From IMG/VR virus record IMGVR_UViG_3300031520_000196, positions 1 through 38,973 of that record: a stretch of DNA of 38,973 nucleotides; one strand, given 5' to 3'. Within the stretch, counting starts at the first letter, position 1, and each line of letters opens with the position of its first letter. The notes beneath the pieces are model-generated. The model saw only the letters and a list, made by a program, of their open reading frames with translations, had not been told where the DNA came from and searched no databases. This DNA is from a virus (lineage: Duplodnaviria > Caudoviricetes). The position numbers and the translations under genes are program-made. Below are positions 2,184 through 29,304 of this stretch, piece by piece.

Positions 2184-3221
2184 ATGCAAGAGCACATTCG
2201 CTTCTATTGCGGTCTCACACATAAATACTGGAATTACCACCTGTGCGATCCGGGACCATACGCCTGCATCTCGCCCATCGTGGGACGCGGGAAGATTGGC
2301 TTTGGCATCAACAGCGTCTATGTGCCGCCTGGCACACGTGTGCTCCAGGACTCCGGTGCCTATGGAGAGCCAATGAGTACTGGCGTCCGTCTCTCATTTG
2401 CCGAGGCATTCAAGCGTCAGGAGCGACATGCCGACAAATATACCTATGCCGACAAACTTGCGTATCGTGCCTCGTATGATCTGCTCGTCGATCATCGCCT
2501 GGCCGAGAGCGCTGGCAAATCATCCAGGCGCAAGATACTGCGATGCTCTGAGTCTGACGGCGTAGAAGCGGTTGATGTGAGCGTGCAGGCGGCGCGTTTC
2601 TTAGACAAGCATAGAAACGGCTATGCTCTCGCGCTCAACGTGTAGGGCGTGACGCCTGCGCAATATCTGCGCTGTGTCGAGCGGGTGGTGCCACTGCTCA
2701 GAGATGGTGACATTCTCGGCTTAGGAGGATGGTGCGTGCTTGGACGTTTACCAAGCATGCTGTCAGACTTTCTTGAGACGCTGGCCCTCGTCATACCATT
2801 TCTTGCGCGTGAAAGCGTCCCACGCGTCCATCTGTATGGCTGCCTCTACACGCCTGCTGTGGCTGCACTCCTGGCGATCTGTGATGCACATGGCATTTCG
2901 GCATCGCTGGATAGTTCGTTTCCTTCGTTCGGGCCGCGTGTTGGCTGCTGGGGCTATGGCTCGTGGCGCAACACGTCCTACGCTCGTCCAAAGGTGCTGC
3001 TCAGTTGCTATAATGATACCTGTGAGCCTGGTACGACGCGCTGTATAGGACTAGAGTGCATTCGTCATGTGCATCTGACCCGTGCATGGCTCTCGTGCTT
3101 CCGAGATCGAGAGTATGGTCTGTACAGGAAGTATGGAGCAAACATTGGCCAGTATGCTCTCGGCCAGATACTTGACCTTGACCTGGATGATGTGATGAAT
3201 GGAGGCTTCCTTTCCGACTGA
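2184..3221 (+). pseudogene. tRNA-guanine transglycosylase/DpdA-like protein split by an in-frame TAG (2643-2645)
   Basis: Motifs DSGAY, NV*G (expected VQG; CAG>TAG), GLGG, HLYG, LDSS in one frame; TATACT at 2172-2177 lies 6 nt before the ATG (leaderless). Confidence 0.7.
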
Positions 3222-3264
3222 CTGAGGCGAATCCTAGACGCGAATGCGTCGTTGTCAGTCGGAA
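3212..3264 (+). repeat. Three-way-junction motif copy 1
   Basis: TTCCGACTGAC-TGA-GGcgaatCC-TA-GACGCgaatGCGTC-GTT-GTCAGTCGGAA. Confidence 0.85.
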
Positions 3265-3283
3265 TACAAAGTAGGAGAAGAAG

Positions 3284-3777
3284 ATGAGTGTTGGTGATGC
3301 GCGTGTGAGGAAGAGTCAGGAACCTGAAAAGGAGCCTGAACCGCCGCCAAAGGTGAAGACGCCGTGTGAGCATGCGCTTGATTTTATTCAGTCGCTGGCT
3401 AAGAGTGGTGCCAGGAGAGTTGGCATTGTCGGCTCTCGTGAATTCAGCGACATGCAGGCAGTCATAGATTTCGTCAATAAGCTGCCAGCAGGCTCTACCG
3501 TTGTGTCAGGGCGTGGTCGTGGCGTTGACAAGGTGGCCGAGGATATCGCGAAGGCTCGTGGCCTGAAGACCGATATCTACCCGGCTGACTGGAACAAGTA
3601 CGGCAGATCAGCCGGTCTTCGTCGCAACCCCTCATCGTTGGCAATTCTGATGTCGTTGTTGCGTTTCACGATGTTCATAGTACTGGAGGTAGTACTGGGA
3701 CCGCGAATTCTATGTCTATTGCGCGTGATACGGGGAAGCCGTTGTACGTTGTTCCACCGGGCTCTTGCGGTCATTGA
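3284..3777 (+). pseudogene. SLOG family (YspA/DUF2493-like) protein, frameshifted in the C run near 3628-3631
   Basis: VGSREF, VSGRGRGVD, PADWNKYGRSAGLRRN; the family-like C-terminus IVGNSDVVVAF...GTANSMSIARDTGKP continues in another frame to TGA 3775-3777. Confidence 0.8.
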
Positions 3778-3847
3778 TCTATACTAAAAACGCAAGCCCT
3801 CTGAAGAATCCTGGCAATCAAAAAGGCGACACCCACTTGTCCTCCTC

Positions 3848-3894
3848 TCCGAACGCCTGACCGAAGGGAGAACGTGAGTTCGTTGGCGTTCGGA
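3848..3894 (+). repeat. Three-way-junction motif copy 2, inside a larger stem (3823-3920)
   Basis: TCCGAACGCC-TGA-CCgaaGG-GA-GAACgtgaGTTC-GTT-GGCGTTCGGA; outer stem AAGGCGACAC/GTGTCGCCTT. Confidence 0.85.
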
Positions 3895-3927
3895 ATAAGG
3901 ATTTAGAGTGGTGTCGCCTTCTTTCCG

Positions 3928-3936
3928 TGATATACT
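3928..3936 (+). promoter_or_regulatory. Extended -10 promoter pointing antisense into the small toxin-like gene
   Basis: TGaTATACT; no plus-strand ORF follows. Confidence 0.5.
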
Positions 3937-4024
3937 GCGCACTCATCACGGTACTTTGCTTTAACTAGTTTATGGTGTCAGTATACAAGCTGTGTCAATT
4001 GAACGCGCTTACTCCTCCTTTTCC

Positions 4025-4147
4025 CTATGGGTCATCTACATGATCGCCCTTCTTGCCGCCCTTTGAACGCTCACGCCAAAGAATGATAGCCTGCACAACG
4101 AACGTTCCTGCAGCAATCACGAGGCTCATTTTTTCAAACAGTGTCAT
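4025..4147 (-). CDS. 40 aa single-TM peptide, holin-like/type I toxin candidate
   Basis: MTLFEKMSLVIAAGTFVVQAIILWRERSKGGKK...: hydrophobic helix plus charged tail, typical of type I toxins. Confidence 0.6.
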   Translation of the reverse strand: MTLFEKMSLVIAAGTFVVQAIILWRERSKGGKKGDHVDDP

Positions 4148-4381
4148 AGTACCCTTAGTGTCGGGGTAAGACAGACGTACCAAATCTATGCAATATCTTT
4201 CCTCAAGTTGCATGTAGAACCATAGCCTGCGCAAGCATGCGTATGGTATGGTATGAGTAGCATCTGTTCCCCGCGATGTGTGAGGCGGCATTGGTGCGAT
4301 GAGCGGCTCCTACACCTCCTTGTCGCACTTCAGCCGCTTGCGTAAGAATCTCTTACCCTTTAAGCATGCCTACTTTTTGTT

Positions 4382-4669
4382 TCAAATAAGGTCATTTTCT
4401 CTCTGATATTGAGGGATATAGCATATGTGTTTACTGAGAGAGCTTCGCCAAGTGCGATAGACATAGAGCATCCGTAAGACACACGTAGCCAAAATCTGTG
4501 ATGTCTTCTCCCAAAAACAAGACGACCCATACAGCAATGTATGAATCGTCTTACGTGCCGCCCACTCCACACTGTCGGCACAATGGCTGTGAAACTTCTT
4601 ATTATCGATAACACCTATCAAACGATAATAAGACTTCCCCATTGCGTGCTTATTATCGCCTGTGAACAT
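4382..4669 (-). CDS. Hypothetical protein (AT-rich, doubtful)
   Basis: ORF directly downstream of and co-oriented with 4679..5008; no motif. Confidence 0.35.
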   Translation of the reverse strand: MFTGDNKHAMGKSYYRLIGVIDNKKFHSHCADSVEWAARKTIHTLLYGSSCFWEKTSQILATCVLRMLYVYRTWRSSLSKHICYIPQYQRENDLI

Positions 4670-4678
4670 TACGCTTGC

Positions 4679-5008
4679 TTATGTCTCTCGTGAGATGGCT
4701 GCGTTGGCCCACATGACCGCTTCCTCAAGATGCGTCAGTGCAAGACTCTGCTCCCTGGAAGCTGGCGACATATGCGCAATCTCAGTGGCGAACTCCTTCG
4801 CCTTGTTGCGCATGGTCTCGTAGCGTGTCTGCTGACCGTCTTTGGGAGGATGATACGTAAAGTTGTGTTCGATGCGCTCAAGCTGCTGCTGCAGCGTGTG
4901 CTGCTCGCTGCTCATCAGCTTTGCCTCGTGTGTGCCGTGCTGTTGTTGTTCTGCGTGATGAGACTTGACTGCCTCGTGATGTGACTTGGTGATAACTGGT
5001 TCGCTCAT
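4679..5008 (-). CDS. Acb2/Tad1-like helical hairpin protein (candidate nucleotide-signal sponge)
   Basis: NFTYHPP...SREQSLALTHLEEAVMWANAAISR resembles the family C-terminal helix; RBS GGAGG; His/Gln-rich N-terminal extension. Confidence 0.65.
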   Translation of the reverse strand: MSEPVITKSHHEAVKSHHAEQQQHGTHEAKLMSSEQHTLQQQLERIEHNFTYHPPKDGQQTRYETMRNKAKEFATEIAHMSPASREQSLALTHLEEAVMWANAAISRET

Positions 5009-5151
5009 AGCTGTTTCCTCCTATGTAACGCTTTGTTACACTTTTTTCAACAAAAGGGGAGGCGTCGGTATGCATGTTCTACATGCGTACCGACACCCTG
5101 GAGTGTACCATCCCATCTCTCGGAGTTCTCAAATACATTATACTGATAGCT

Positions 5152-6627
5152 TCAATAACGACTTTCACCACTATACAAGCGTCTCGGCTTCACTACCTTT
5201 GCCTCTTGCACCTGCGTAAGTATCTCGCGTATCGCTTCAGTGCAGAGTGCGATACTCAACAAGAAGTCGTCGTGTCCTTCGTTCGCGTCAACCCTCATTG
5301 CGATCATCCCCTCGGATGGAATGCTGTATCTTGCCAATTTGAGTTGTTTCCAGCACTCGTTATATATCTCGGCTGGCGCCTTATCTTGCTCATATATCTT
5401 GAGTCTGCCGCTGTTCACCATGGCTAATAACTGGAAGGTCAGTGCGCTCTTACTTGGTCGTGAGAAGTTGAACCCGATAACCCGTTCATCACCAAATTTG
5501 TCAACAAGTAATGATGCTATACCCGCTCCAAGCCCTGTTTTGTCGATGACGATCTTGCGAATATTCCACTGCTGCATGAGCTCGATGGTGGTGGCGTACT
5601 GGTCGCTGTACTTCATCCCTGTAAACCAATAGTTATGCACAACCTCGATCTTGGGCAAGTCGAGTTCGTTGTATGACACGCGCCCTATGGTGATGATGGT
5701 CGAGTCGCGCTTTGCGTTCGCTTTCTCTTCTTGCCCAGGGGTAGGTCTCTCCTCGCCCCCAACGTCCATTCCTGCGATGTAAAACTCGTCTTCAACAGGA
5801 GCATCAAGCCAACTATGCACACCTTTAAGCAAATGACGCTGAATCTCGTTAAATAACAGACCTGCGCCACTGATGGGCAATAAGCGAAACTGTGTCCTGA
5901 TCGAGATACTGTCTTCGCCAAGACGCCGTATCTCGCCTTCAACAAACTTTTTGTACTTCGGATTGATGGCAGCAAGTGTACGCCAATCGAACTCGAAGTG
6001 CCGACGGATACCATCTTGCTCCTCGAGTTCCTTATTGTGCTCTATTTGCCTGGCAAGAAGCGTGTCGCTGCTCCAGGCCGTCCCCCATAAAATAGTGGTC
6101 GCATTCGTAGTCGATGCCATTGGCCTCAGTTCCACATCGAATTTTGATTGTGCGACATCCTGCGCCTCGTCAATCTCAAGCAAGAGTGAAGCGGTTGCGC
6201 CGACAATGGAGGAGTCGGGGCCCGCCGAAAAGAAAAATATTTTCGTTCCTGCTTGCACGTCCCTGAGTTCAGGGGAGGGTGCAAGGCCGATGATATAGCC
6301 CATGCTTTTCCAAAATCGGTCTCGCAAGAGTGGAGCTTCCATCATCTTCAATAATCTTATTCGACTGTTGTTGACCTGTGGAACCCATGTAGGAGCGCAT
6401 TTTACAAGAGAACCTTGCTCGTAAGCAAACAGGATGTAACTTTCGATAAAAGCCGATGTCTCGTTTTTCCCCATCTGACGTGCAAGCATACAGGTAAATG
6501 TATACCCGTGCCCATTGATAACACTATCCAGCACTGCATCAGCAATAGTTTCTTGATAGTCATAGATGGTGCGACCTAAAATGGTTTCCACAAACCATCG
6601 TATACGCTTTGGTGGTGGTGCAGTCAT
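5152..6627 (-). CDS. terL: Terminase large subunit
   Basis: YDYQ Q-motif, Walker A-like ARQMGKNE, Walker B LLEIDEAQD, GTA coupling motif, RNase H-like GMDVGG, IDKTGLG and HDD. Confidence 0.88.
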   Translation of the reverse strand: MTAPPPKRIRWFVETILGRTIYDYQETIADAVLDSVINGHGYTFTCMLARQMGKNETSAFIESYILFAYEQGSLVKCAPTWVPQVNNSRIRLLKMMEAPLLRDRFWKSMGYIIGLAPSPELRDVQAGTKIFFFSAGPDSSIVGATASLLLEIDEAQDVAQSKFDVELRPMASTTNATTILWGTAWSSDTLLARQIEHNKELEEQDGIRRHFEFDWRTLAAINPKYKKFVEGEIRRLGEDSISIRTQFRLLPISGAGLLFNEIQRHLLKGVHSWLDAPVEDEFYIAGMDVGGEERPTPGQEEKANAKRDSTIITIGRVSYNELDLPKIEVVHNYWFTGMKYSDQYATTIELMQQWNIRKIVIDKTGLGAGIASLLVDKFGDERVIGFNFSRPSKSALTFQLLAMVNSGRLKIYEQDKAPAEIYNECWKQLKLARYSIPSEGMIAMRVDANEGHDDFLLSIALCTEAIREILTQVQEAKVVKPRRLYSGESRY

Positions 6628-7538: not shown

Positions 7539-8708
7539 TTATAATCGATGCTGCCTGATACCTACGTCTCCCCAATGGACTCTTGCTGATGATGCGAAAT
7601 CACGTTGCTGCTTGATCTCCACCAATCTCGCTTCAAACTGTGCAAGCTTCGCGGCGGTGGCTGCTGCCCATGATCTCGGAATCTTCGTGTCGTCCACGCG
7701 ATCTCTGAGGCCGCCGTCCTGGAAGTCAAAGTTGTCGTTGGTCGGAATGCTGTATGCATCCATGCAGTAGCCAACTGCACCAAGCGCGATGATATCTCTG
7801 TGTATCTCTGGTATGGTGCTGCCATTTGCATCAAGCTGGTGTTTGGTGGCGTAGAACACTCTCATGCAGAGCGAATTATCTTTGGGCAGTTCGGCGCTGC
7901 TCAACTGCAGCGTGAATGATGGCTCAACGGTTCCTGTTGGCCCAGCGCTCGGCCCAATGGCTCCATTGATACCCATGTTGCCCCCTGCCGCGATTGCCGC
8001 CGTGCTGTCAAACAGATTGCTATACTCGTTGAAGCTGCGTTCAATCGGCGGCCAGAACATCACACCACTTGTGTTTACGGTTGGTGGTGGAGGCATACCG
8101 ATGAGCACACTATCTGGCGCTGTATCCACATAGGTCGTGGTGACGTTATCAGGGATGGTGTAGAGGTAGAGGAGTTGTGTACTCCCAACTGGAGTACGAT
8201 AGACGTTCCTGCCGATAACCGTGTTGGTGGCGATGCCTGGAATGCTCGGCTGCCCGTTGGCAACAGGAATAGCTGTAAGCGCGACCTTCTGATTACCTGC
8301 CGTCGTGGTGACGCTGCTCACTGGCGATGGTGTGGTCTCTCCACCTTGCGACAAGAAGGATACAGCGTACTGATACTGACCTATGCCCAAACCTGCACCC
8401 GCCTGCGCTGCTCCTGTTGGACCAAACCCCGGTGGGGTAAACTGACTCCCATACACCTGCAGGGGATAGAGTATGCGCTCGATCCATAGGACATTGTATT
8501 TGCTGTTGTAGCTGTTGGGGTAAGGGTACGTCCTTTGGAATGGTTGCATCTGCATATCTGCTTGCGCGATGTTAGGATAATATGCGCTGTAACGATCTAC
8601 AGCGCGGTCTATAGCGCGGTCGATATCAGAGTTAGCCCAGCGCTGGTTCGCGCCTGGGGGATCAAACAGGTCTGTTCTGACCGCCGATTCTAAATCACTG
8701 AGTATCAT
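7539..8708 (-). CDS. Probable head-tail adaptor/neck protein with inserted beta-sandwich domain
   Basis: N-terminal helices (LSDLESAVRTDLFD...WANSDIDRAIDRAV) and C-terminal IPEIHRDIIALGA are adaptor-like; the middle part (YQYAVSF..GETTPS..RNVYRT..TTYVDT) is FnIII-like; ATG 8708 overlaps the upstream stop. Confidence 0.55.
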   Translation of the reverse strand: MILSDLESAVRTDLFDPPGANQRWANSDIDRAIDRAVDRYSAYYPNIAQADMQMQPFQRTYPYPNSYNSKYNVLWIERILYPLQVYGSQFTPPGFGPTGAAQAGAGLGIGQYQYAVSFLSQGGETTPSPVSSVTTTAGNQKVALTAIPVANGQPSIPGIATNTVIGRNVYRTPVGSTQLLYLYTIPDNVTTTYVDTAPDSVLIGMPPPPTVNTSGVMFWPPIERSFNEYSNLFDSTAAIAAGGNMGINGAIGPSAGPTGTVEPSFTLQLSSAELPKDNSLCMRVFYATKHQLDANGSTIPEIHRDIIALGAVGYCMDAYSIPTNDNFDFQDGGLRDRVDDTKIPRSWAAATAAKLAQFEARLVEIKQQRDFASSARVHWGDVGIRQHRL

Positions 8709-9295
8709 GGCATCACCTGTGTAATGAATGGATGTGTTGGTCCAGTTTGCATATGGCATCTGCAATGAGGATGCGCGGGTGGATGCATATCTCCGCTGGG
8801 GAAGGCTTGATGCACGGGAATAGCACCAACTTGCATATTGGCGACGCAATCGTCACACGCGTCATGGAACGCATACCACTGCTTGAGCGTTACGATTTCT
8901 GGTTGGTCTCCGGGATAGCTTGATGCTGGTGGCGTCTTTGGTTGCCCTGCTCCGCCGCCGTTGGGCCAATTCCACGGTGGTACTGGAAACAGCGGTGGTA
9001 GTAGAATTGGCACTACTGGCTGCCGCTTCTTATGGTCGTGTGCGTTGGCTGGTCCTGCGTGCTCATCTGGCTCTGCTGGGCCTGCATTCTCACCCTTTGG
9101 GTCTGGCTCGTCTGGTCCAACTTCGTCAACCCACAGGCCATGACGTTTCTCTACGATGCTCCCAAACACGTTCTGGGCCTCGCTGATCTGTGCATCATGG
9201 TCCTCCTCTCCGAACGCCTGACCGTCAGGGAGACGCGAATGCGTCGTTGCAGGTCGGAATACGGAGTCGCACTCTGGACCGCAAAACTCGCACAT
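8705..9295 (-). CDS. Minor head protein (Mu gpF/SPP1 gp7-like C-terminal domain only)
   Basis: KQW...ACDDC...FPSGDMHPPAHPHCRC; the N-terminal half is low complexity. Confidence 0.7.
   Translation of the reverse strand: MCEFCGPECDSVFRPATTHSRLPDGQAFGEEDHDAQISEAQNVFGSIVEKRHGLWVDEVGPDEPDPKGENAGPAEPDEHAGPANAHDHKKRQPVVPILLPPLFPVPPWNWPNGGGAGQPKTPPASSYPGDQPEIVTLKQWYAFHDACDDCVANMQVGAIPVHQAFPSGDMHPPAHPHCRCHMQTGPTHPFITQVMP
9200..9268 (+). repeat. Three-way-junction motif copy 3 (P1 mismatched; inside the minor head ORF)
   Basis: TCCGAACGCC-TGA-CCgtcaGG-GA-GACGCgaatGCGTC-GTT-GCAGGTCGGA; the first 25 nt are identical to 3839-3863. Confidence 0.8.
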
Positions 9296-10679: not shown

Positions 10680-10709
10680 GCTTGTGTTTCCTTGCTTGTG
10701 GACTCTGTA

Positions 10710-10757
10710 TTCCGAGTCGCTGACTGTGTAGACTTGAAAAGTCGTTGCGACTCGGAA
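10710..10757 (+). repeat. Three-way-junction motif copy 4
   Basis: TTCCGAGTCGC-TGA-CtgtG-TA-GACTTgaaAAGTC-GTT-GCGACTCGGAA. Confidence 0.85.
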
Positions 10758-10985
10758 AGGAGGACGTTTTGCGTTTATTTGAGGCTGGCGTAAAGGAAGT
10801 GGATACCTTATGAGGAAAACGCTTTGCGGAGTGCCACGCCTCGTATACGCGTTGTGGTGGTGGTTGTAGGGAGTGGGGGGAAGCTGTCTGATGAAGAAGG
10901 GAGGGTAAACTCCGGGACATGCGTTGTTTGTAGGGAAAAAGAGCACCCTCCCTCTCTCTACTACTATTCTACCTGATCAGTCTAA

Positions 10986-13389: not shown

Positions 13390-13762
13390 GCTGCCAAGCG
13401 CGTTCAGCCAACTGGTTCTGCCTCATAATGTGGCGGAACATCCTTTTCTTCTTCCACTCCGTTTTTTCTTGTCTTTTTGGCTCTGTTTTTTAGCGTTCTG
13501 CCAAGATATGCGGCGGAAACGCCATTTTACTTGGCAAAGAAGAAAGCCGCTCTAGTAGCCACTTCCTGCTATCTACTCGTCGCGAGTGCCAAGTTATGAG
13601 GCACGCATTAACCCATTTCCTGTCATTGGATCAAACTCTTTCCGCACCTAAATCGTCCCAAATGGATGAATTCTACTGTTCCGGCATTTTATGTGGCAGA
13701 GATTTCCATGAGAAATCGTCTCAAAGCTCTTCACAGGCCACCTGTTGGCATTTTATCTGGCA
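13351..13762. repeat. Array of imperfect palindromic boxes, consensus YGCC-N9-GGCR
   Basis: Copies at 13372 (rev), 13420, 13500, 13521, 13588, 13683, 13747, plus a degenerate one at 13351 (rev), e.g. GGCATTTTATGTGGCA and GGCATTTTATCTGGCA. Confidence 0.7.
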
Positions 13763-13899
13763 AAAATCCGCCAGTAATCGGGTTCATACACAGCTTTGGT
13801 GAATCAGCTCGGTTGCTTCTTTCAGAGTATCTCTTCCTCAGTGATGATACACTCTTCGTGATACCTATTTTTCTCCGGTATCGCGAGGAGCTGACGTTG

Positions 13900-15495
13900 A
13901 TGGAAAAATCGCCTTTTTTGCCTCTTCTGGAAGGGTTGTGCATGATACAGATCCTCCAAGAGGAGACACTACTTACTGTCGAAGTGACCTCTGAGCGCTT
14001 GTCTTCGTGTTGCCCACTTTGTGCTCAAACGTCGGTTTCGGTTCATAGCCAGTTTACACGGATGCTACGAGATGTCCCGTGTGGAGGCTGCAGAGTTCGC
14101 CTTCGTCTTCTTGTACAGAAGTTCTTTTGTCGGAATCCTTTCTGCCAGCGGAAAATTTTCACGGAACGCCTCCCTACTTTTGTAGAACCCTGGGCACAGA
14201 TGACGCTTCGGCTCAATCGAACCCTTCAGATGATTGGTCTCGCCACATGTGGCAGCTTGGGAGCACGACTTGCGGCTCATCTGGGCATTTCTGTCTCGTG
14301 GATGACCATTGTCCGACGTATCATGGATATTCCCACCCCAGCCGCTGGTCTGGTCACTGTTGTAGGCATCGATGATTTTTCGTTTCGCCGAGGGCGCACG
14401 TTCGGCACCATTCTCGTTGATCTTGATCGCCATCAGGTGATTGACCTCCTCAACGAACGCTCCTCGAAGAGTTCTGCTACCTGGATGCGTACTCATCCTG
14501 AACTTGAGTATGTGAGCCGAGATCGTGGCAACGACTACACTCAAGGAGCCAACGAAGGGGCTCCTCAAGCCATCCAAGTTGCAGATCGTTTTCATGTGAC
14601 CAAAAACCTGGTCGAGTCGATTGAACCTGTGATTGCACGCTGTTACAAGCACATACGCCACGCTCAACTTCCACTTCCCTCGCCAGTGCTTCCTCAGCCA
14701 AGAGAGTGGCGACAAGTTTCTGATGGGGATGCGGAACGAAAACGCGTCGCACGGCTCACCGAAAACCAAGACCGATTTGAGCAGGTCAAAGCATTGCACC
14801 TGCGCGGCCTCAAGCAAGAGGAAATTGCTCGACGACTCGGAATGGCAGTGCGGACCGTGCAATGATGGCTTGAGCGAGGGACGTGTCCTGGGAGCCAGCG
14901 TCGGCGCAAGCGGCGCAGTATCTTTGATCCGTATGCTCCTTACGTTTTGCGGCGGTGGCAAGAAGGATGCCGAGATATATCGCTCCTGTGGCAGGAGATC
15001 CAGAAGCAAGGGTTTTCGGGAGAGATACGCACTGTGTATCGGTTCATCCGGGCACTTCATCAGGACCCCATCGAGCTTCCTCGTGCTTCCGTCCTTGACC
15101 GTGTCTCCGTTCAAGAAGCGATCTGGCTCATCGTTCGCCCTCCCGATGATCTGAAAGCAGATGAGCGTACAGATTGCCAGGAATTGTGCCAGGCCAGCCG
15201 AGAACTTTCCACACTCTATGCGCTTGTTCAATCCTTTGGGCAGATCGTGCGCAAGCGCGAAGGACATCGGCTGGAAAAGTGGAAACAGCAAGTTGCCGAG
15301 AGTGGACTGACCGAAGTACAGCGTTTTGCCAAGGGACTGGAACGAGACAAAGAGGCTGTGCTCGCTGGGCTCACGGTCATCTACTCTAACGGTCAGGTGG
15401 AAGGCCACGTCAACAAGCTCAAATTGCTCAAAAGAACCATGTACGGCAGAGCTGGGTTTCCCCTACTCCGCCAACGTGTGCTTCATGCGCTGTAG
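13900..15495 (+). pseudogene. ISL3 transposase with in-frame TGA at 14863-14865
   Basis: CPLC..FFC zinc finger, VGIDDF, SRDR, VADRFH, SNGQVEGHVNKLK..KRTMYGR; the frame continues through VQ*WL (probably CGA>TGA); RBS GAGGAG before ATG 13900. Confidence 0.92.
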
Positions 15496-15741
15496 CACAC
15501 GCAAACCGTGATCTTCTTCTTGTACCACCATCCTAGCACAAAACACGCTCCGTGTCTGTAATGCCCCTTACAGTCTCTGATTGGAAGTTCTCATATACTG
15601 TATCATGAACACGTCCTCGTCGTACCGTTGTGTCTTTCAACAAGGACTGTCTGTAGTGAACAAGATCGTAGAGACTTGTCTCGCGAAGACGCGTTGTCTC
15701 AACATGGAGAAAATCACATAGGATCAAGAAAGGGTTGATGT

Positions 15742-16482
15742 ATGACAATGAACACCTCTCATCCACAAAAACTCTACCTTCTCCCGCTTTCGACCTCAAC
15801 CATCCCTGTAGCACCTGGTCGAACGCTGGAAATGGTCTCAGGATGCTATCTCATCGAGACAAGAGATGGGAAGCATATCCTGATTGATAGCGGACTTCCT
15901 GCCGACTACATGCCACCAGTAGAGCTGCCGCCAGCCGAGAATGAAAAAAATGTGATCACGCATCTCGGTGATCTTGGTTTGCGTCCTGACGATATTGATA
16001 TCCTCATCTGCACCCATTTTGATATAGATCATGCGGGATATCACGATGCCTTTCCAAAGGCGGAACTCATCGTTCAGCGTGAACACTATGCGCTAGCGCG
16101 GAGTGGACACCCACGTTTTGCCGTCGCACGCGCTCACTGGGATCATCCGGGCTTGCAGTACCGACTGATCGATGGAGATACCGACCTCCTGCCTGGCCTG
16201 ACCTTGCTTGAGACCAGTGGGCATACACATGGACATCAGTCAGTCCTCGTGCGCCTGCCGCAGGTCGGTCCGGTGCTTCTGGCTATCGATGCAGTCGTAA
16301 TGCAACGCCTATTTACCCCTGATCGTCAGGCATGGCCGACGGATGAGAACGAGGCGCAACTGCGTGCCAGTACACGAAAACTCTTGGCTCTCGTTGAGCG
16401 CGAGCATGTCGCATTGGTTATCTTTGGTCATGATGGTCGGCAATGGCAAACGCTCAAGAAAGCACCAGCATATTATGAATAA
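15742..16482 (+). CDS. Metallo-beta-lactamase-fold hydrolase, N-acyl homoserine lactonase-like
   Basis: ILIDSG, THFDIDHAG, TSGHTHGHQS, LAIDA, IFGHD. Confidence 0.85.
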   Translation: MTMNTSHPQKLYLLPLSTSTIPVAPGRTLEMVSGCYLIETRDGKHILIDSGLPADYMPPVELPPAENEKNVITHLGDLGLRPDDIDILICTHFDIDHAGYHDAFPKAELIVQREHYALARSGHPRFAVARAHWDHPGLQYRLIDGDTDLLPGLTLLETSGHTHGHQSVLVRLPQVGPVLLAIDAVVMQRLFTPDRQAWPTDENEAQLRASTRKLLALVEREHVALVIFGHDGRQWQTLKKAPAYYE

Positions 16483-16764
16483 TTCTCTTACACCATCACG
16501 GGGAAACAGCGTATTTGTCTTTTGGTAAATGCCCTGAAGAGTGAGCATCTTTCTCTGCCCCATTGTTCCCTTCAGTTTTCACGTTGTGATGCACTTCTCA
16601 CACTGTGTTTTGTTCGATTCAAGCAAGCAAGCGGATTCACCAAAGCTGTGTATGAACCAGTAATCGAGTCAAATGACACATATGGCTTCGTTATCGTCTA
16701 GTATGCCAACTCTCATATCTTTCTGGCCTTTTCGGTATGTGCCGTTTCGATAGTAGCCTCCTTG

Positions 16765-16812
16765 CGGTTTTGCTGACCGTCAGGTAGACTCGCACGAGTC
16801 GTTGCAAAACTG
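16765..16812 (+). repeat. Three-way-junction motif copy 5
   Basis: CGGTTTTGC-TGA-CCgtcaGG-TA-GACTCgcacGAGTC-GTT-GCAAAACTG. Confidence 0.85.
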
Positions 16813-16853
16813 AACAAGAGTAGTTGCAGCATACTACATCTATAGGCTATCGT

Positions 16854-22012: not shown

Positions 22013-24121
22013 CTAGATGCCTCTGTATAAGCCTCTATAATCTACTGCACAGCCTCCGTACTCATGACGCACCTTATACGAAATGGCATCCTGAGTGAAG
22101 TTCAGGCCGAATAAAGGTTGGTCCTGGATGAAGAGCGCGGGATTCACCTGTCCTCCAACAAACCCGATCTCGATGGTGTCGATCTCTCTCGGATCGCCAA
22201 TCAAAAACCACTGTGTCGCGCTCGACAACTGAGGTGAGATGATCGGCATGACGTAGCCGAGCATGGGGTTGATGTCGTTGTTGTTGTTGCCTGGCACGCC
22301 TGCCGACTTGGTCACGACCATGCTCTGCCACTCTAATTCAGGCGGGACAACCAGGAACCTTGGACGTAAGCCGATACGCTTACCTGCATAGTTGGCCTGC
22401 TCTCTCATTGCCGTGATACCTGTCTGCATGGCGGCTGTCGAGAGTGCTGCCGCGCCGAGATTGTTGTGTGGTGCGCCTGTGGTGAAGAGTGCGCTGCCGT
22501 CATAGATGTTTGGGTTCGTCGAGAGGAAGCTGTACACGAACTCTGCAAGCGTGTACGCTGCGGCTACAGCGAGTTTGGTTGGTATTTGTTTAATCGCCAT
22601 GAGATCGTCATTGATGATCGTCTCACGGCTCACAGTCACCAGGTTACCACGCTTCTGTGGTACATATGTGGCTGCCGAGTCGGTCAGTGTCACTGCGCTG
22701 TAAGCGGTATCCTCTGCCACAACCGGTAGTGAACCGAATGCGCCGAACCTCACGCGTGACTGTTGTTTGAAGTCGCGCACTGGCGCTATTGTGCAGAATC
22801 TTTGCCATTCAGCAGGCCATGCCTGGTAGTCTTTGAGCAAGCGCTTATTCATGCTTGTGCCAAGCAGGTAGCTAAAGCTGGCGGTGGTGGTATCAGCCTC
22901 GGAGATGCGCCCCATGGGAGCACTCTCATTGACCCGGATGCTGCCGAGACTGGTTCTGTCAGAGATGCCACCCATGAGGCTCGCATCTCCCGTTACTCTC
23001 GCATAGGCTTCACGAATGCTGCTAAAGGGATTGATGTTGCCCAGCTTGGTGGTGTCGATATCCAAATCGAACATTCTATCAAAGGCGGCCTGTACCTTTT
23101 CGGCCTCGGTGATCTGGCTGGTGATGTCGGCCTTGCTGTAGCCATTGCCACGTACAAGACCTTGCTTGGTCAGCTCAGCCAGCATATTCAGCGCGCTGGA
23201 CATCTCATCGTCAAGCTCCTGGTCCTCGAAGACACGCCCGACGAACTTGGTTTTGATGTTGGCCTTGACAGGATCAGGGAGCTTGCTGTCCTGCAAGATG
23301 CGTTCGAGGCGTACACCTGCGCGTTCGAGCTTGGCGTCCTCAAGCATCTGCTCGATCTGCAGACGCTGTTTCTCAAGTGCCTGCTTTTGTTCGATGATGT
23401 GGCTATTCATCGTTGCAGGATTACTTGTCGTGTCTGCTGTAGCAGGTGTAGCAGGGTCTGCTTGCTGCTGATTCTGTTCCTGGATGTTGGGGGTAGTTAC
23501 TTGGTCTCCCATTGTTGGGTCTCCTTGTGGGGAAGTAGTAGAGGTTGTAGTAGGAGGGGGTTGCTTTTGTGACTCGTCGGTATCTTCTGACAAGTCGTGA
23601 AGTATTCTTCGGAATGCTCCACCTGCGGAGGGTCTGGTAACGATATCGCAAGAATTGAGGCTTACGACACTTGTAACATGTTTGGCTTTTGTCGATTCGT
23701 TGTGCTGCCATTGACCGAATATATCAATGGACAAGCCAATAAGCTCTGGCCTGCCAAGTGACACGGCTTCGGCCAGCATGGACCAGAGCCACTCGGACGC
23801 CTCAAAGATGTGCAGTGTGGCGTCAACGCGGCCAACGCCTTCGGTGATGTACTCCGCATCTTTGTAGAAACCGACCACATCACGAATAGAGCGGTTTGTC
23901 TGGTCCGCTGGTGTCCTGGCATGGTCGGCGTAGGCACGCGCTCCCTCGATCATTTGAGCGATGTTTTGTAACGCTTTGGTGTCGTAGGCGAACCCATTTT
24001 TGGATGTTCCGCCTGTAATGATCGTGACGCGTACCTCGTGGCCTGCCAGGTCATCGATGGTTTGGCCTTCGATGATAAAGCTTTCGACGTGTAAAACTTG
24101 CTCCTGAATCTGCTCTGGCAT
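22013..24121 (-). CDS. Prohead protease-scaffold-major capsid protein fusion (Mu gpT-like HK97 fold)
   Basis: Protease-like GTSKNG..Y, YADH, GLSID, SCDIVTRPSAGG; coiled-coil linker; capsid-like RDFKQ, SRETIINDDL, PRFLVVPPEL, YKVRHEYG..VDYRG. Confidence 0.88.
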   Translation of the reverse strand: MPEQIQEQVLHVESFIIEGQTIDDLAGHEVRVTIITGGTSKNGFAYDTKALQNIAQMIEGARAYADHARTPADQTNRSIRDVVGFYKDAEYITEGVGRVDATLHIFEASEWLWSMLAEAVSLGRPELIGLSIDIFGQWQHNESTKAKHVTSVVSLNSCDIVTRPSAGGAFRRILHDLSEDTDESQKQPPPTTTSTTSPQGDPTMGDQVTTPNIQEQNQQQADPATPATADTTSNPATMNSHIIEQKQALEKQRLQIEQMLEDAKLERAGVRLERILQDSKLPDPVKANIKTKFVGRVFEDQELDDEMSSALNMLAELTKQGLVRGNGYSKADITSQITEAEKVQAAFDRMFDLDIDTTKLGNINPFSSIREAYARVTGDASLMGGISDRTSLGSIRVNESAPMGRISEADTTTASFSYLLGTSMNKRLLKDYQAWPAEWQRFCTIAPVRDFKQQSRVRFGAFGSLPVVAEDTAYSAVTLTDSAATYVPQKRGNLVTVSRETIINDDLMAIKQIPTKLAVAAAYTLAEFVYSFLSTNPNIYDGSALFTTGAPHNNLGAAALSTAAMQTGITAMREQANYAGKRIGLRPRFLVVPPELEWQSMVVTKSAGVPGNNNNDINPMLGYVMPIISPQLSSATQWFLIGDPREIDTIEIGFVGGQVNPALFIQDQPLFGLNFTQDAISYKVRHEYGGCAVDYRGLYRGI

Positions 24122-24930: not shown

Positions 24931-25349
24931 CGTAGTCTCCTTAGTTTCGCTTCTATGTGGGTTCCAGTGGGTACGATTCCTTGTGGTACAGCCTCGATTA
25001 TCTCGTACTTCTTCGCCGAGGCGACAGCTGCTGCTGTGGCGGTGGTGGTATCCGCGATAAACGCAACGCCTGTGAAGTTGGTGCCGAGTGGCGCAATGCA
25101 GAGCATGTCGAAGTAGAGTCGAGGTGGTATGCCTGCTGAATCGGGTATCTGGGGATCGATGATGCTTTCAGGTCGGAAAATGACGCTGATTGCCACGTAT
25201 GAATATACGCCTGCCGCCTGGTACACAAACACGACAGTTTTCGTGCGTCCGGCGAACGTCTTATTCACAATCTGCTGAATGTGTGCTGCCTTGCGTGGAT
25301 CAAGTGGCATTGCGGAAAGCTCCATACTGAGAATGACAATCATTCTCAA
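24927..25349 (-). CDS. Hypothetical protein, possible head-closure (start may be ATG 25310)
   Basis: Beta-rich, ending YEIIEAVP.G...THIEAKLRR as in head-closure proteins. Confidence 0.55.
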   Translation of the reverse strand: MRMIVILSMELSAMPLDPRKAAHIQQIVNKTFAGRTKTVVFVYQAAGVYSYVAISVIFRPESIIDPQIPDSAGIPPRLYFDMLCIAPLGTNFTGVAFIADTTTATAAAVASAKKYEIIEAVPQGIVPTGTHIEAKLRRLR

Positions 25350-25352
25350 TTG

Positions 25353-25550
25353 CTAGAATGGCTGGTGCTCAACGTCGCGATTGGGCTTCTCGTGGATGTG
25401 GTGCTGGTGCTGCACCTTCTTGTGCTTGGGGTGTGGGTGTTTCTGTGCCTTGGGATGTCCACCGTGACGTGCATGGCCGCTGCCTGTACTTCTGTACACC
25501 GCAGAGAAGTTGAGTGCGCTGGTCTCGAAGCCTGCGTTATTGTTACTCAT
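25353..25550 (-). CDS. Small His/Lys-rich protein
   Basis: RBS GGAGG at 25557-25561; GHARHGGHPKAQKHPHPKHKKVQHQHHIHEK. Confidence 0.6.
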   Translation of the reverse strand: MSNNNAGFETSALNFSAVYRSTGSGHARHGGHPKAQKHPHPKHKKVQHQHHIHEKPNRDVEHQPF

Positions 25551-25554
25551 ATCT

Positions 25555-25597
25555 GACCTCCTGAGCGTAAGCTAGACGCGAAGCGGCGTTGGAGGTC
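25555..25597 (+). repeat. Three-way-junction motif copy 6
   Basis: GACCTCC-TGA-GCgtaaGC-TA-GACGCgaaGCGGC-GTT-GGAGGTC; fills the gap after the portal gene. Confidence 0.85.
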
Positions 25598-25603
25598 TGA
25601 ATA

Positions 25604-27082
25604 TCAAAAGTGTTCATTGGTCATAGCTCCTGCTTGCGTTGTCGCCATAGCTCGAATGCGATCAAGCTCCTCGTGGACATTGACTTCCTGGTTGAAGGAT
25701 TTGTACATCAGCGTCATAGCGGTTTCGTCGGATATCCATCCCTGCGCCTTTGCGAGTGCTAGAGCTTGCGTGACATAGCTCAACGCCTGGCCCACCAGGC
25801 CAATATCTTCCGCGTCAATCTCTGGAAAGATAATCTCGTAGGCAGCATTCTTTGGTACCTTGTTGCCAAACTTGCCGGCTTTTCTGGCTTCGTCAATGAC
25901 TCTATCAAGTATGGCGGTGAGAATATAGCGCATCACCTTCTGGCGTCTCTGGAACTTGAGGAGTGTTGGTAGTCCCATCTCCGCGGCCGTGGCGCGGTTG
26001 CCATTGCTGCCGTCTGATAGATAATGCTCCGGGATGATCGCGCCGAGAGCCACCATGAGTTTAATCTGCCTGCCGTCTTCCGATGCATCACCGGCATTGA
26101 TTTTTGGTTCTACGGCTGCCCACGTCTCGGCGTCGTTGTGGATAATCACACTTCCTGGCTCCGGGGGATATCCATAGTCCATCTGTTTGGATGCTATGGT
26201 CTTTTTGTCCGCTCCCCTGAGTGTCACATCATACAGAAACGCGCCTTTGTACTTGTTGATCCTGACGCGATCTGTGAGCCAATCTTTGTACCTGCGCAGC
26301 CAGGGCAAAAGTGTTGCCAGATCGCTCTTACCACGTTTGGCGTTAGAGACTTTGTTGATGGCGAACTGCAGCACCTCCGGACCTGTATTGCCCTTTGGCT
26401 GGCAACTGAACCACTCGCCTTCTGTTTCGGCCTCGGTCGGTGCGTGCGATGGGTCAAAGTGCTGTGGATCACCACTGGTCGCACTCATGACCTGACCAAT
26501 AGGCCGCCTATGCACGCGCAGAAGCTTCTCGATGTCCTCCGGGTCGGTCTCGATCTGGTCTATGACTGAGGGGTCAATCTGCCTGACCACCACGGTTCCA
26601 TCGTACTGATTGACAAAGAACCTGATGAACTGCTCGCCGTATAACGCAAGCTCGGTACAAATGAGGTAGACGCGCTCGTCCATCTTATTTGATGGGTCAT
26701 TCCAGAAATCGTCTAAGACCTTCTGTACACGAGGATTGGCTGCTGAAATAGTGAGGCCGCGGCCGAGGACGAATGAGGTGGTGATTTCGATGATGGCGCT
26801 TGCCAGAGGATTGGCGTTGAACGCCTCGTAGCAATCATTATGTATTTGGAGATAGGTTGAGGGAATGACATCTTTTTGGTAGAAATTGTCACTCAAACGA
26901 CGCCATAGGAAGTCCTCTTCATTCCCGCTGGCAGTTCTTCCCCAGAGCTGGTCCTCCTGCGTCGGCGTTCCTGAAAAAGCAGTGGGATTGATTTGCTCAG
27001 TCACACGGTCAAGTTGAGCCTGCTCTACTGATGCTGGCTCCTGTGGTTGGGCTGTGCTTCTGAACAAATCAAATAAACTCAT
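25604..27082 (-). CDS. Portal protein
   Basis: About 490 aa; NPLASAIIEITTSFVLGRG, LALYGEQF, RGKSDL, IPEHYL..NRATA, GWISDETA; upstream of the capsid gene. Confidence 0.85.
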   Translation of the reverse strand: MSLFDLFRSTAQPQEPASVEQAQLDRVTEQINPTAFSGTPTQEDQLWGRTASGNEEDFLWRRLSDNFYQKDVIPSTYLQIHNDCYEAFNANPLASAIIEITTSFVLGRGLTISAANPRVQKVLDDFWNDPSNKMDERVYLICTELALYGEQFIRFFVNQYDGTVVVRQIDPSVIDQIETDPEDIEKLLRVHRRPIGQVMSATSGDPQHFDPSHAPTEAETEGEWFSCQPKGNTGPEVLQFAINKVSNAKRGKSDLATLLPWLRRYKDWLTDRVRINKYKGAFLYDVTLRGADKKTIASKQMDYGYPPEPGSVIIHNDAETWAAVEPKINAGDASEDGRQIKLMVALGAIIPEHYLSDGSNGNRATAAEMGLPTLLKFQRRQKVMRYILTAILDRVIDEARKAGKFGNKVPKNAAYEIIFPEIDAEDIGLVGQALSYVTQALALAKAQGWISDETAMTLMYKSFNQEVNVHEELDRIRAMATTQAGAMTNEHF

Positions 27083-27083
27083 G

Positions 27084-27548
27084 CTATGCTTCGTTCTCCT
27101 CAAGTGGCTTTATACCAAACATGCGTTCCATTATTGCGCCATAGGGGTTGCCATCATCCTTCTGATAGCGTTCTGGTAGTGGGGTAGGATTGAGATTATA
27201 CCTCACGTTAAAGCATGGGTGAAAGTGGCGAATGAGCGCGGTTTCCGCATCGTCTACATCTCCAGCGACTAATCCTGGCTCCAGGTATTGTGCGCAATCC
27301 TCAAGCGTCCATAGCTCATATGTCCATGTGCCGGAGTGTGGTGCCTGTTCTAGTATCAGTGTACCAACCTCACTTGCATCTGCCTGCCATGTTTGGCCGA
27401 GATGCTCCATGAAGCGTGTGAGTGGTTGTCGTGATTGACCGACGTAGAAGACGATAGCATCTTCTCGAAAGAGGTAGATGGGATGCCCTATGGCATCACT
27501 CGGTTTCAGTTTCCTTGCAATAATATTCTTAATGGTTGTCTGTATCAT
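27084..27548 (-). CDS. GIY-YIG nuclease-like protein
   Basis: PIYL..FYVGQS...RFMEH...ETALI..FHPCFN. Confidence 0.75.
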   Translation of the reverse strand: MIQTTIKNIIARKLKPSDAIGHPIYLFREDAIVFYVGQSRQPLTRFMEHLGQTWQADASEVGTLILEQAPHSGTWTYELWTLEDCAQYLEPGLVAGDVDDAETALIRHFHPCFNVRYNLNPTPLPERYQKDDGNPYGAIMERMFGIKPLEENEA

Positions 27549-27569
27549 GGCAACTCTCTTCTCCTTATT

Positions 27570-27615
27570 CCGAACACAAACGCCGCTTCGCGTCTAGCTT
27601 CGCTCATGTGTTCAG
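27570..27615 (-). repeat. Three-way-junction motif copy 7 (inverted orientation)
   Basis: Minus strand: CTGAACACA-TGA-GCgaaGC-TA-GACGCgaaGCGGC-GTT-TGTGTTCGG; about 10 nt after the recombinase stop. Confidence 0.85.
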
Positions 27616-27624
27616 CAATGTAGC

Positions 27625-28584
27625 CTAATACAACTCGTCGGTTAAACCGACTTCCAACTCATCAAGCACATAATGCTTGGCTGTCACTTCAATTGACTTA
27701 TGTCCTAGCGCAAGTCGCGCTTTGCGAATATCCTTCTTCGCTAGCTGCGTCCCAACGAACCTTCTAAAGTCATGTGGCTTTACATACTGTAATCCGCATT
27801 GGTTCGCATAGTGCCTCACGATGGACCAGACCGCTGCTTCTGAAAGATGCTCACACGATGGAAGTCTCCCTCGTGTCGAAAACGACGTAAAAATAAAGTT
27901 TGAAAGCGTTGGTCTACGCTGTACCCACTCATTGATGAGCCTGTACGCTTCTGGCGAAAGATGCGCGTCTCGATACTCAGTATCAGTCTTGCCGCAGACT
28001 TTGACCACATAGCCACGTCCGCGCTTCTCGATCTGGCTGAGCGTCAGTGTCGCGGCTTCTGATGCTCGTATGCCTGATGAGGCAAGCAACGCAAGTATAG
28101 CCGCGTCTCTAGCACCTATGTCTGTGCTGGTATCCGGTGCGTTGCACAGTCGGCGCATATCCTCTGGTGCTATGCGTGTGCGACTATGCTGCTTGAGTCG
28201 AGACTTGAGGGCCTTGACTTTCACTCCTGGCACATCGGCGAATGCAACTCTGAGTCCGGTATCAATCATCTTGCGTAGTGCGGCTTCTTTGACTAACCGT
28301 TTGACTGCACTCATCATGCGGTTGATGGTGTGAGGTGACATGTATGTCTCTAAAGAAAGATGATCGCGCCACTTTGCCAATGTTATTGGGTCGAGTGCAT
28401 CATAGTCCGATTGCTCTGCGAAGTCTGTATAATCAGCAACATCGCGTTTATACATTGCGATAGAAGACTCGGTAAGTTGCCCTGCTAACAAATGTTCCAT
28501 TCGGAAAATGTTTGTTCCAGGAACCAGATCGTGCGACTGAATAACCTCAAGAGAACGCTCGTCCATACCTTCAAATACCCCCAA
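27625..28584 (-). CDS. Tyrosine recombinase (XerC/D-like, no arm-binding domain)
   Basis: SGIRASE (R), GK, PHDFRR (HxxR), LGH, catalytic Y in AKHY; 319 aa. Confidence 0.92.
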   Translation of the reverse strand: MGVFEGMDERSLEVIQSHDLVPGTNIFRMEHLLAGQLTESSIAMYKRDVADYTDFAEQSDYDALDPITLAKWRDHLSLETYMSPHTINRMMSAVKRLVKEAALRKMIDTGLRVAFADVPGVKVKALKSRLKQHSRTRIAPEDMRRLCNAPDTSTDIGARDAAILALLASSGIRASEAATLTLSQIEKRGRGYVVKVCGKTDTEYRDAHLSPEAYRLINEWVQRRPTLSNFIFTSFSTRGRLPSCEHLSEAAVWSIVRHYANQCGLQYVKPHDFRRFVGTQLAKKDIRKARLALGHKSIEVTAKHYVLDELEVGLTDELY

Positions 28585-28627
28585 CTCATAAAATTAAATA
28601 AGCCTTTAATCATGCTTTATTGAGGGC

Positions 28628-28656
28628 ATTTTATGCTACTTAAGATGTGCTGTCAA
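28628..28656 (-). promoter_or_regulatory. Sigma70-type promoter upstream of the recombinase
   Basis: TTGACA-17 nt-TAAAAT on the minus strand. Confidence 0.75.
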
Positions 28657-28704
28657 TGATATGATGTATAACGTTACTAAGAGGTAGTAGTGTTGAAAAT
28701 GTTC

Positions 28705-28890
28705 CTACTCTTGAGCTTTCTGCTCTTCCTCTGGTGCTGTTTGTTGTTTGTCCAGAAAGAAGAATGGAATACCCGAATGCTCACAGGTATGGCACATGAT
28801 TGTTGTTCGCCCTGTCGGTTGCTGGTGTTCGTCCACCTCGCCGATTACATTGATCGGCCTTGCAGTGCCGCCGCAATATTCACACTGCAT
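28705..28890 (-). CDS. Small zinc-ribbon protein
   Basis: CEYC...CHTC. Confidence 0.6.
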   Translation of the reverse strand: MQCEYCGGTARPINVIGEVDEHQQPTGRTTIMCHTCEHSGIPFFFLDKQQTAPEEEQKAQE

Positions 28891-29098
28891 AGCGTTTCAC
28901 CTGCGCTTTACACTGACACCGGAGTATACTGCCGAGAAATGGCGCTTTGCATGCTGTACATGTAGCGAGTGCCCTGTTACGTTGGAACAAGCGCATGCTA
29001 TAGGGTAGTCGTACTTTGCTTATGGCTTTTGCGTAGGCTCGTCGCCATGCTCTGTTAGGTTTTGGTGCTGGGTTGTCGAGGGCTATGGTGCCGTTCAT
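28880..29098 (-). CDS. Small basic Cys-containing protein
   Basis: RBS AGGAG; CTAC...CQC. Confidence 0.5.
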   Translation of the reverse strand: MNGTIALDNPAPKPNRAWRRAYAKAISKVRLPYSMRLFQRNRALATCTACKAPFLGSILRCQCKAQVKRYAV

Positions 29099-29254
29099 GT
29101 GGTGATGCTCCTAGATGAGAAGAAAATAGGGGGAAGCTCTATCGGCAAGGTTGCGCAATGTTGGGGTGGGATTACGAAGCCTTGCGCGATAAGCTCCTGT
29201 ATGAAGAAGTATGTGAGCTGCTACGATGCTCGGTGGTGTAGCGGGGGCTTCCTT

Positions 29255-29304
29255 TCATTATGACTGAGGCGAAGCCTAGACTCGAAGAGTCGTTGTCATG
29301 ATGA
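29255..29304 (+). repeat. Three-way-junction motif copy 8
   Basis: TCATTATGAC-TGA-GGCgaaGCC-TA-GACTCgaaGAGTC-GTT-GTCATGATGA; left flank GGCTTCCTTTC is shared with copy 1. Confidence 0.85.

Follow-up and report, generated by a model that had tools for sequence, protein, structure and literature searches.

A small gene-less three-way-junction repeat, first seen in a prophage fragment, is very probably a mobile element of Ktedonobacteria

To our knowledge, the way in which REP-like repeats and orphan MITEs (miniature transposable elements with inverted repeats) spread is still largely unproven. As portrayed in the accessible parts of the sources, REP/BIME repeats, treated together with RAYT genes (PMC8266576, PMC3733652, bioRxiv 10.1101/279083), are small, high-copy, mostly intergenic and lineage-specific; they consist of strand-asymmetric folded DNA, their ends often supply stop codons, and they occur in clusters. 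Non-autonomous elements of the IS200/IS605 type (PATEs, ISC, IS605B; PMC4810608) adjoin a short target without duplicating it, have structured ends and are expected to be mobilised in trans. Bacterial MITEs (Correia, ERIC, RUP, YPAL, RPE; PMC2229807) are non-coding and shorter than 200 bp, occur as filled and empty sites, have TA beside their ends and insert in frame in genes, in mobile elements or near dyad symmetry, and the NTS/SRM repeats, described together with Ssn GIY-YIG nucleases (PMC11893778), are high-copy folded single-stranded DNA (ssDNA) repeats. Here we describe a repeat that shares these features and was first noticed, in eight copies, in the 38,973-nucleotide stretch of IMG/VR record IMGVR_UViG_3300031520_000196 (the window), which by gene content is a fragment of a tailed (pro)phage. 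These repeats are very probably a mobile non-coding element, and their family is real, apparently undescribed and recently active in Ktedonobacteria.

The initial annotation of the window had listed eight motifs of the form P1-TGA-P2-(T/G)A-P3-GTT-P1', and all eight were recovered at their positions (Table 1). The junction part had been delimited correctly, while the boundaries were too short and missed the tails and a lower stem: the full unit opens with a 5' tail led by CTWC, continues through a lower stem, in which an ATA internal loop is conserved, to P1 and the junction, and closes with 5-10 nt of 3' tail. It is gene-less and about 62-74 nt long. A strict descriptor demanding at least 7 pairs in P1 found six of the eight copies and gave no match in 60 dinucleotide shuffles, a relaxed one also recovered copy 4, and copy 3, recognised from the start as the exception in P1, was found only without a P1 filter. 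A covariance model trained on 19 copies (7 from the window and 12 from related loci, with copy 3 excluded) picked out exactly the eight copies in the window, including the untrained copy 3 at 56.8 bits; besides these it gave a weaker reverse-strand match on copy 4.

Alignment of 118 distinct copies to the model left 94.2% of cells paired, with two-sided changes at 17 of 18 pairs; slid-alignment controls paired at 32-45%. This model-based alignment leans to the model; an independent MAFFT alignment gave 90% paired cells and again compensated changes at 17 of 18 pairs. Structure rather than sequence is conserved, as had been proposed, with stems that drift while their pairing is kept. The junction nucleotides, first described as invariant, proved to be near-invariant (TGA in 110, TA in 113 and GTT in 117 of the 118 copies), and a TGCG junction variant is common in the genome brp13. 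Left ends read CTAC in 44, CTTC in 30 and ACTC in 10 of 126 copies. A second element of about 18-20 nt, a CCCC-GAAT-GGGG hairpin, is inserted in P2 or P3 of many Ktedonobacter copies. It is present or absent between orthologous copies (L306, L330, L333, L349, L360 and others), and of the 76 places in 1.6 Mb that match it exactly, 33 fall within a junction element and on the strand of that element.

Mobility was apparent from the comparison of K. racemifer, K. robiniae and K. sp. SOSP1-85, for which one 400-kb block per genome was examined and the counts were curated by hand. The trio yielded 63 orthologous comparisons, of which 21 were empty, 40 filled and 2 other; 7 more lacked an orthologue. 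Indels were whole units of 69-74 nt, or of 87-105 nt where a small nested hairpin was present, and the flanks were mostly 90-100% identical. Sites were filled in either pair of genomes, and therefore both gain and loss or exchange occur. Copy 7 of the window is an insert when set against L005, the closest phage, where this site is empty, and L005's own two copies lie where the window has none. One copy lies in frame within a tnpB gene, and another, of 65 nt, inside a HEARO/omegaRNA upstream of iscB, where it is absent from all 8 aligned relatives. At the latter locus (L224, 5014-5350) the insertion falls in a joining region and the iscB frame is intact, which makes this omegaRNA a natural test of where the scaffold tolerates inserts. 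Copies also form head-to-tail tandems (L057, L133, L498, L528), are nested within one another (L524, L550, L558) and in one case are fused head to head (L388). In L220 (5689-11213), a 2.76-kb two-gene unit stands in tandem duplicate with element copies at its boundaries, which suggests a repeat-mediated event or an assembly artefact. The contigs of three near-clonal metagenome DNA runs, two of them possibly the source of the window, contained no joint that skips a copy.

The element was abundant on chromosomes. Model matches numbered at least 140 in brp13, at least 126 in K. racemifer, at least 80 in K. formicarum and at least 18 in one metagenome-assembled genome (MAG), with at least 145 and at least 124 copies in two further Ktedonobacter genomes. 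At most 150 candidates were scored in each genome, which makes these numbers lower bounds. None was found in K. rubrisoli, and T. aurantia and T. tsumagoiensis had no copies. An exact end pattern gave at least 157 near-identical copies in brp13 (8.9 Mb) and none in the reversed control; by either end pattern, about 0.7 Mb of this chromosome (G002, approximately 1.43-2.11 Mb) is without a copy, and the rest is evenly covered. Across the class, 43 of 101 Ktedonobacteria genomes were positive, a tally that, like the co-occurrence tests below, includes two unpublished genomes (G061 and G070). A survey of Chloroflexota found 5 positives among 151 genomes, all five also in the class sample, and a search, run without a positive control, of 121 genomes from the phylum of an Acidobacteriaceae-labelled MAG gave none. 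A tight pattern matched at least 121 metagenome loci, and all 114 distinct metagenome matches among those listed pair at 3 or 4 of 4 unspecified P1 positions. Copy 1 had no blastn match in PLSDB plasmids and GenBank phages.

Among 95 related prophage loci (1.45 Mb), 16 copies occurred in 9 and the other 86 had no copy. One prophage locus, L057, has 6 within 11.8 kb. Among related viral records taken whole, five contained 2, 3, 1, 0 and 0 copies. The original view of the motifs as a signal that punctuates the prophage did not hold: the element is a Ktedonobacteria host repeat, not a phage-specific signal, is absent from most related prophages and is polymorphic by whole-unit insertion. The comparison that had been suggested as a refuting one, equal abundance throughout the host chromosome with no link to the prophage, came out largely in this direction, with the exception of the copy density in the window. 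The motif in turn marks host range, tying these phages to Ktedonobacteria.

At the insertion sites, the left end of the element is fixed at CTWC and the preceding four bases are mostly YWTA-like. TA stands directly 5' of the element in 127 of 210 copies, with CTTA and TTTA commonest. Twenty events were read by hand, namely 19 trio sites and the omegaRNA insertion: 10 were clean, 8 had 1-2 substitutions, 1 had 3 extra nucleotides and 1 was complex, with the substitutions confined to positions -4 to +2. There is no obligatory target duplication, because just 4 of the 10 clean insertions end in 3 nt that recur in the left flank. At each junction the core may agree with the element, with the target or with both. 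An antisense frame of at least 150 codons takes its stop codon from the last 3 nt of the element in 28 of 223 copies, against a background of 0.7 per offset. These stops are 22 TAA, 4 TGA and 2 TAG, some sites being orthologues, and the association may reflect either targeting or survival. Inverted repeats of at least 7 bp flank 14 of 108 family-B copies (shuffles 4%, maximum 10%), and about 10 of these 14 are, by eye, insertions into another copy.

Relative to their neighbours, folding strands were sense to both genes in 39 cases, antisense to both in 40, and mixed in 26 and 18, with 20 further calls inside naive open reading frames (ORFs); in the window the split is five antisense to three sense, as had been noted. 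C-G-closed GNA and GNNA loops are extra-stable in DNA. Of 121 distinct hairpin loops, 38 were GNA, 29 GNYA, 22 GNRA and 32 other, and this prevalence of GNA/GNYA (67) over GNRA (22), together with the orientation balance, supports the earlier view of a DNA-like rather than an mRNA element. The G-T wobbles of copies 5, 7 and 8, from which TGA...GTT had been taken as the folding strand, are present and extend to the family at large (51 G-T vs 23 A-C in the 118 copies). Predicted minimum-energy DNA folds gave the three-way junction in 6 of the 8 window copies (not 3 and 4; z -1.3 to -5.5), and the TGA strand was favoured over its complement by only 0.1-2.1 kcal/mol in 7 of the 8 copies and disfavoured in the remaining one; energy models hardly separate the two strands. 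Orientation balance, loop types and G-T excess together favour selection that would act on one folded DNA strand.

The account to which we give about an even chance is that the gene-less element is moved as folded ssDNA, the enzyme that cuts and joins it being provided in trans and most likely of the HUH (TnpA-like) kind. Its parts differ in strength: folded ssDNA is the probable substrate, judging from the sequence features above, and the assignment of the enzyme to the HUH type is tentative, being made by analogy, because the geometry matches that reported for IS200/IS605-type elements. In the accessible parts of the sources, Y1-mobilised elements insert 3' of a short target without duplication and carry a strand-specific hairpin (PMC4810608, PMC8266576, bioRxiv 10.1101/279083). 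For such an enzyme, the folded stem and the junction would be the recognition signal, and a core of about 4 nt the place of strand exchange; the strand would peel out and close into a small dumbbell circle with its two tails joined, the form that the tandem arrays would display, and the circle would be joined into a single-stranded target, for example a hairpin loop or DNA at a gene end. As the last bases of the element resemble the target core, a stop codon that is hit would stay a stop and the insertion would survive. It is possible, if rather doubtful, that the element represents a new class of minimal transposon, its whole identity lying in a three-way junction of DNA that adopts a defined tertiary fold (TGA/TA/GTT and the ATA loop), served in trans by an enzyme that belongs to none of the known RAYT, TnpA, Ssn or integron families, using a core of about 4 nt without duplication, restoring stop codons and being parasitised by the 18-nt hairpin element.

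Several results weigh against movement as folded ssDNA by a TnpA-like enzyme. No mobiliser was found, by adjacency or co-occurrence, among Y1/RAYT, IscB, Y2, GIY-YIG and integrase genes. Model matches occurred at 0 of 28 and 0 of 29 Y1-transposase loci; Y1 genes were not tied to the motif, a hit being absent from 10 of the 43 genomes with the motif and from 10 of the 58 without it (p 0.46), and K. formicarum has no Y1 match despite its many copies. RAYT-like co-occurrence had a p of 0.18 for genomes with at least 10 copies, and all 4 RAYT-like loci examined carry other repeats, GTAG-started in 3. No internal guide covarying with the target was detected, and brp13 showed no lagging-strand bias (51 vs 49; first 100 of 142 copies, origin placed at dnaA). 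Boundary 3-nt repeats were found in 40 of 126 copies (32%), compared with 21% and at most 27% in within-genome shuffles; in the larger set of 210 copies the excess was only slight. At the 4 TGA and 2 TAG stops (one site occurring twice), the tail end is host-like and the left flank mostly element-like, and these mixed cores, together with the boundary-repeat excess, fit a staggered two-strand exchange equally well. Family-A copies lack an excess of hairpin targets (3 of 102). What speaks instead against the reading as a host repeat is the density of the window, 8 copies in 39 kb (1 per 4.9 kb). It is about 10 times that of brp13, the chromosome with the highest count (at most 1 per 57 kb), the comparison being with other Ktedonobacteria chromosomes rather than with that of the prophage's host; a decaying prophage under relaxed selection and a host very rich in repeats are both possible reasons.

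Individual candidates for the enzyme were followed further. RAYT-like genes co-occur with the motif at genome level, being present in 22 of the 43 positive genomes but only 10 of the 58 negative ones (p 0.0005). Four RAYT-like loci (L604, L138, L142, L145) have their own flanking repeats and are REPtron-like, the junction element lying sometimes in a repeat loop, and one copy is 1 kb from a RAYT gene, inside another hairpin repeat, this gene again having its own GTAG repeats. The XerD-like recombinase of the window was rejected as the cognate enzyme: it occurs in only 8 of 101 genomes, was not found in K. racemifer and has no consistent link to the element. No viral relatives of it were found; its homologues occur in 6 of 43 positive and 2 of 58 negative genomes (p 0.07), with a single weak element match across 8 of 9 loci scanned. 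The GIY-YIG-like gene of the window was likewise set aside, having no homologue in 5 genomes, 4 of them with copies; 0 of 29 GIY-YIG loci carry the motif, and brp13 has a small GIY-YIG gene with one adjoining copy (L394). An integron integrase was detected in 1 of 101 genomes, a motif-negative one, and a Y2 transposase profile in 0 of 101, the controls likewise giving no match. To look for an autonomous version, left ends were paired with right ends across brp13 and 25 regions were read, most of them between close copies; these contained ordinary genes only. No parent insertion sequence (IS) was present among 246 neighbouring proteins or 302 metagenome neighbours, a search that did not include a whole-genome scan for IS ends, and clustering of both protein sets revealed no recurring mobile-element gene.

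The alternative that survives best, which we nevertheless regard as unlikely, is a tyrosine recombinase or other staggered-cut enzyme that, like the integrases of conjugative transposons, swaps a mismatch-tolerant overlap of 4-6 nt, with heteroduplex junctions resolved to element or target. All four element/target core combinations are seen at left and right, and the clustering of junction mismatches from -4 to +2 would be expected of such an overlap; IntDOT offers a precedent with a variable 5-bp coupling sequence, according to the accessible part of PMC2817482. Copy 8 abuts the XerD-like gene, whose homologues are somewhat commoner in positive genomes, but the rarity of this gene, its absence from the K. 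racemifer search results and the near lack of element matches at its loci tell against it, as does the integron integrase confined to a motif-free genome. The targets moreover have only about 4 nt in common, the strand asymmetry of the fold points to ssDNA, and a single-strand enzyme with a variable cut in the core would yield the same mixtures.

It is improbable that a DDE transposase moves the element as a classical MITE, duplicating 2-3 bp of TA/TTA, or that the element spreads by way of an RNA copy and a reverse transcriptase. The frequent TA before the element, TTA at both ends of 22 of 24 brp13 copies and the pairing of the ends into a long stem speak for this explanation. However, the terminal 3 nt are not inverted repeats and are duplicated in under half of the clean insertions, the tail is of uneven length (5-10 nt), copies stand in tandem or nested in one another, and the loops are of the DNA type; no parent IS appeared among the neighbouring proteins, DDE and reverse-transcriptase families not having been profiled. 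A regulatory structured RNA under host selection, acting on mRNA stability, processing or translation, would account for the strong covariation, the tolerance of G-T/G-U wobbles and the mostly intergenic copies beside stop codons or ribosome-binding sites, and single copies may possibly have local effects on single genes. As a general explanation it is very improbable given the even gene orientation, the rapid gain and loss between genomes with nearly identical flanks, the insertions in tnpB and omegaRNA, the lack of a recurring neighbour gene family and the absence of copies from K. rubrisoli, T. aurantia and T. tsumagoiensis. Hardly credible is a phage-specific folded-ssDNA signal for replication, packaging or as a hairpin promoter, the idea of the initial annotation, for which the density of the window (and of L057) and the lack of contigs skipping a copy can be cited, since most related prophage loci and two of five viral records have no copies, the closest phage has its copies elsewhere and chromosomal copies run into the hundreds.

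Table 1. Copies of the element and selected genes in the window
Feature	Coordinates	Strand	Remarks
Copy 1 (full element, tails approximate)	3206..3274	+	model 79 bits
Copy 2	3841..3905	+	model 64 bits
Copy 3	9202..9269	+	model 57 bits, outside training set
Copy 4	10700..10771	+	model 51.5 bits on +, 27 bits on -
Copy 5	16757..16824	+	AGTAG at both boundaries
Copy 6	25545..25611	+	between portal stop codon and start codon of ORF 25353-25550(-)
Copy 7	29248..29312	+	65-nt insertion vs closest phage L005
Copy 8	27558..27623	-	directly after XerD-like recombinase gene stop
Terminase	5152-6627		window gene
Portal	25604-27103		window gene
Protease-capsid fusion	22013-24121		window gene
XerD-like recombinase	27625-28584		window gene

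An upstream ORF (2649-3221) stops at a TGA inside P1 of copy 1, which precedes a SLOG gene, and copy 2, downstream of that gene, sits between the arms of an 11-bp inverted repeat, a terminator-like hairpin. Copy 3 lies within the open frame 8705-9295(-) of a head-morphogenesis-like gene; its inner P1 is broken, its left half equals copy 2 and its P3 equals that of copy 1, so that it looks chimeric. Copy 4, upstream of a predicted lysin gene, has a P2 of only 1 bp and a core inverted relative to its tails, the sole such case by inversion pattern across the loci scanned. Copy 6 fills the gap between its two neighbours, the portal stop and the ORF start both lying within its tails, and the 3' tail of copy 8 supplies the AAGGAG ribosome-binding site before the GIY-YIG-like gene.

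The window also contains holin and tail protein genes. Relatives of its capsid protein were listed at 80 genome loci, and the host clade is taken as Ktedonobacteria/Chloroflexota because nearly all of them carry these labels. The protease-capsid fusion has relatives in about 80 Ktedonobacteria genomes, covering all named genera and mostly at 55-80% identity, which represent either a very widespread prophage family or a domesticated, gene-transfer-agent-like cluster. An Acb2/Tad1-family anti-defence gene (4679-5008, -; Pfam E 2e-21) adjoins the terminase gene. At 2157-3787 (+), an unannotated gene of about 350 codons, split by one in-frame stop, is followed by the SLOG-family gene, which copies 1 and 2 bracket in direct orientation; neither gene was matched among the related loci compared. 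The GIY-YIG-like gene (27084-27548, -) encodes a 154-aa protein with weak PHROG and NCBIfam matches. Positions 13400-16700 hold an ISL3 transposase broken by a stop and a metallo-beta-lactamase-fold gene, inserted in the tail module, and the ends of this insertion are multi-copy in sequencing runs.

The outcome is a lesser one than the initial annotation had hoped for, because the element is selfish DNA of a host clade and no new phage signal. It nonetheless offers a tractable case, with cultured hosts, a recent burst in brp13 and about 20 filled/empty pairs that define both ends, and its hundreds of covarying copies define a natural folded-DNA three-way junction with near-invariant junction bases. 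If the element is indeed moved as folded ssDNA by an enzyme in trans, that enzyme would be a single-strand recombinase that is guided by structure and needs a target of only about 4 nt.

Comparison with catalogued families gave no Rfam match (window at E up to 5; 10 loci), in line with the initial annotation, which had recognised no described family, the best overlap being a chance match of 25.7 bits at copy 5 against a cut-off of 53. We found no description of the family in the literature that could be searched, which excludes most subscription papers and takes in bioRxiv 10.1101/2024.01.18.576219; the accessible part of PMC4810608 mentions unclassified K. racemifer repeats Rep1-3, with which the element may overlap. 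The element is a passenger in the HEARO/IscB omegaRNA (Rfam RF02033), which holds a copy at 1 of 30 IscB loci, and was rejected as a part of that RNA in view of the 8 relatives without it. Integron attC sites differ in that cassettes lie in one orientation, whereas the element occurs in both, with core genes between copies. SRMs, as described in the accessible part of PMC11893778, are simple hairpins, unlike the element, and GIY-YIG genes are not tied to it, even though a GIY-YIG-like gene follows copy 8.

Among the groups that come closest, REPs are likewise simple hairpins in the accessible parts of the sources, whereas the element is a three-way junction on a long stem. The GTAG class of REPs has GTAG 5' of the hairpin foot, where the tail of the element reads CTWC; the element does not flank RAYT genes at the loci examined, its tandems run head to tail, and whole units insert singly with defined ends. 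With PATEs it shares the mode of insertion, half of the 20 events being clean and 6 of those 10 lacking a 3-nt repeat, at a target looser than that of IS608. It differs from IS200/IS605 elements in having one fold for both ends, no replichore bias, no guide covariation and a loosely conserved target, and from IS608/ISDra2 in lacking their lagging-strand bias; its ends had no match at 57 Y1 loci or at 29 of 30 IscB loci, apart from a short CTTCC likeness to the IscB right end. Compared with MITEs, the element has near-invariant junction nucleotides and no parent IS among the neighbours searched. It has no true terminal inverted repeat, as the stem begins at least 3 nt inside the left end and the 3' tail is unpaired, and no obligatory duplication, as a fixed-length repeat is confined to a minority of clean events (4 of 10) and of copies (40 of 126). 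The element works like a REP, a PATE or a MITE, but lacks several of the features by which membership of these groups is defined.

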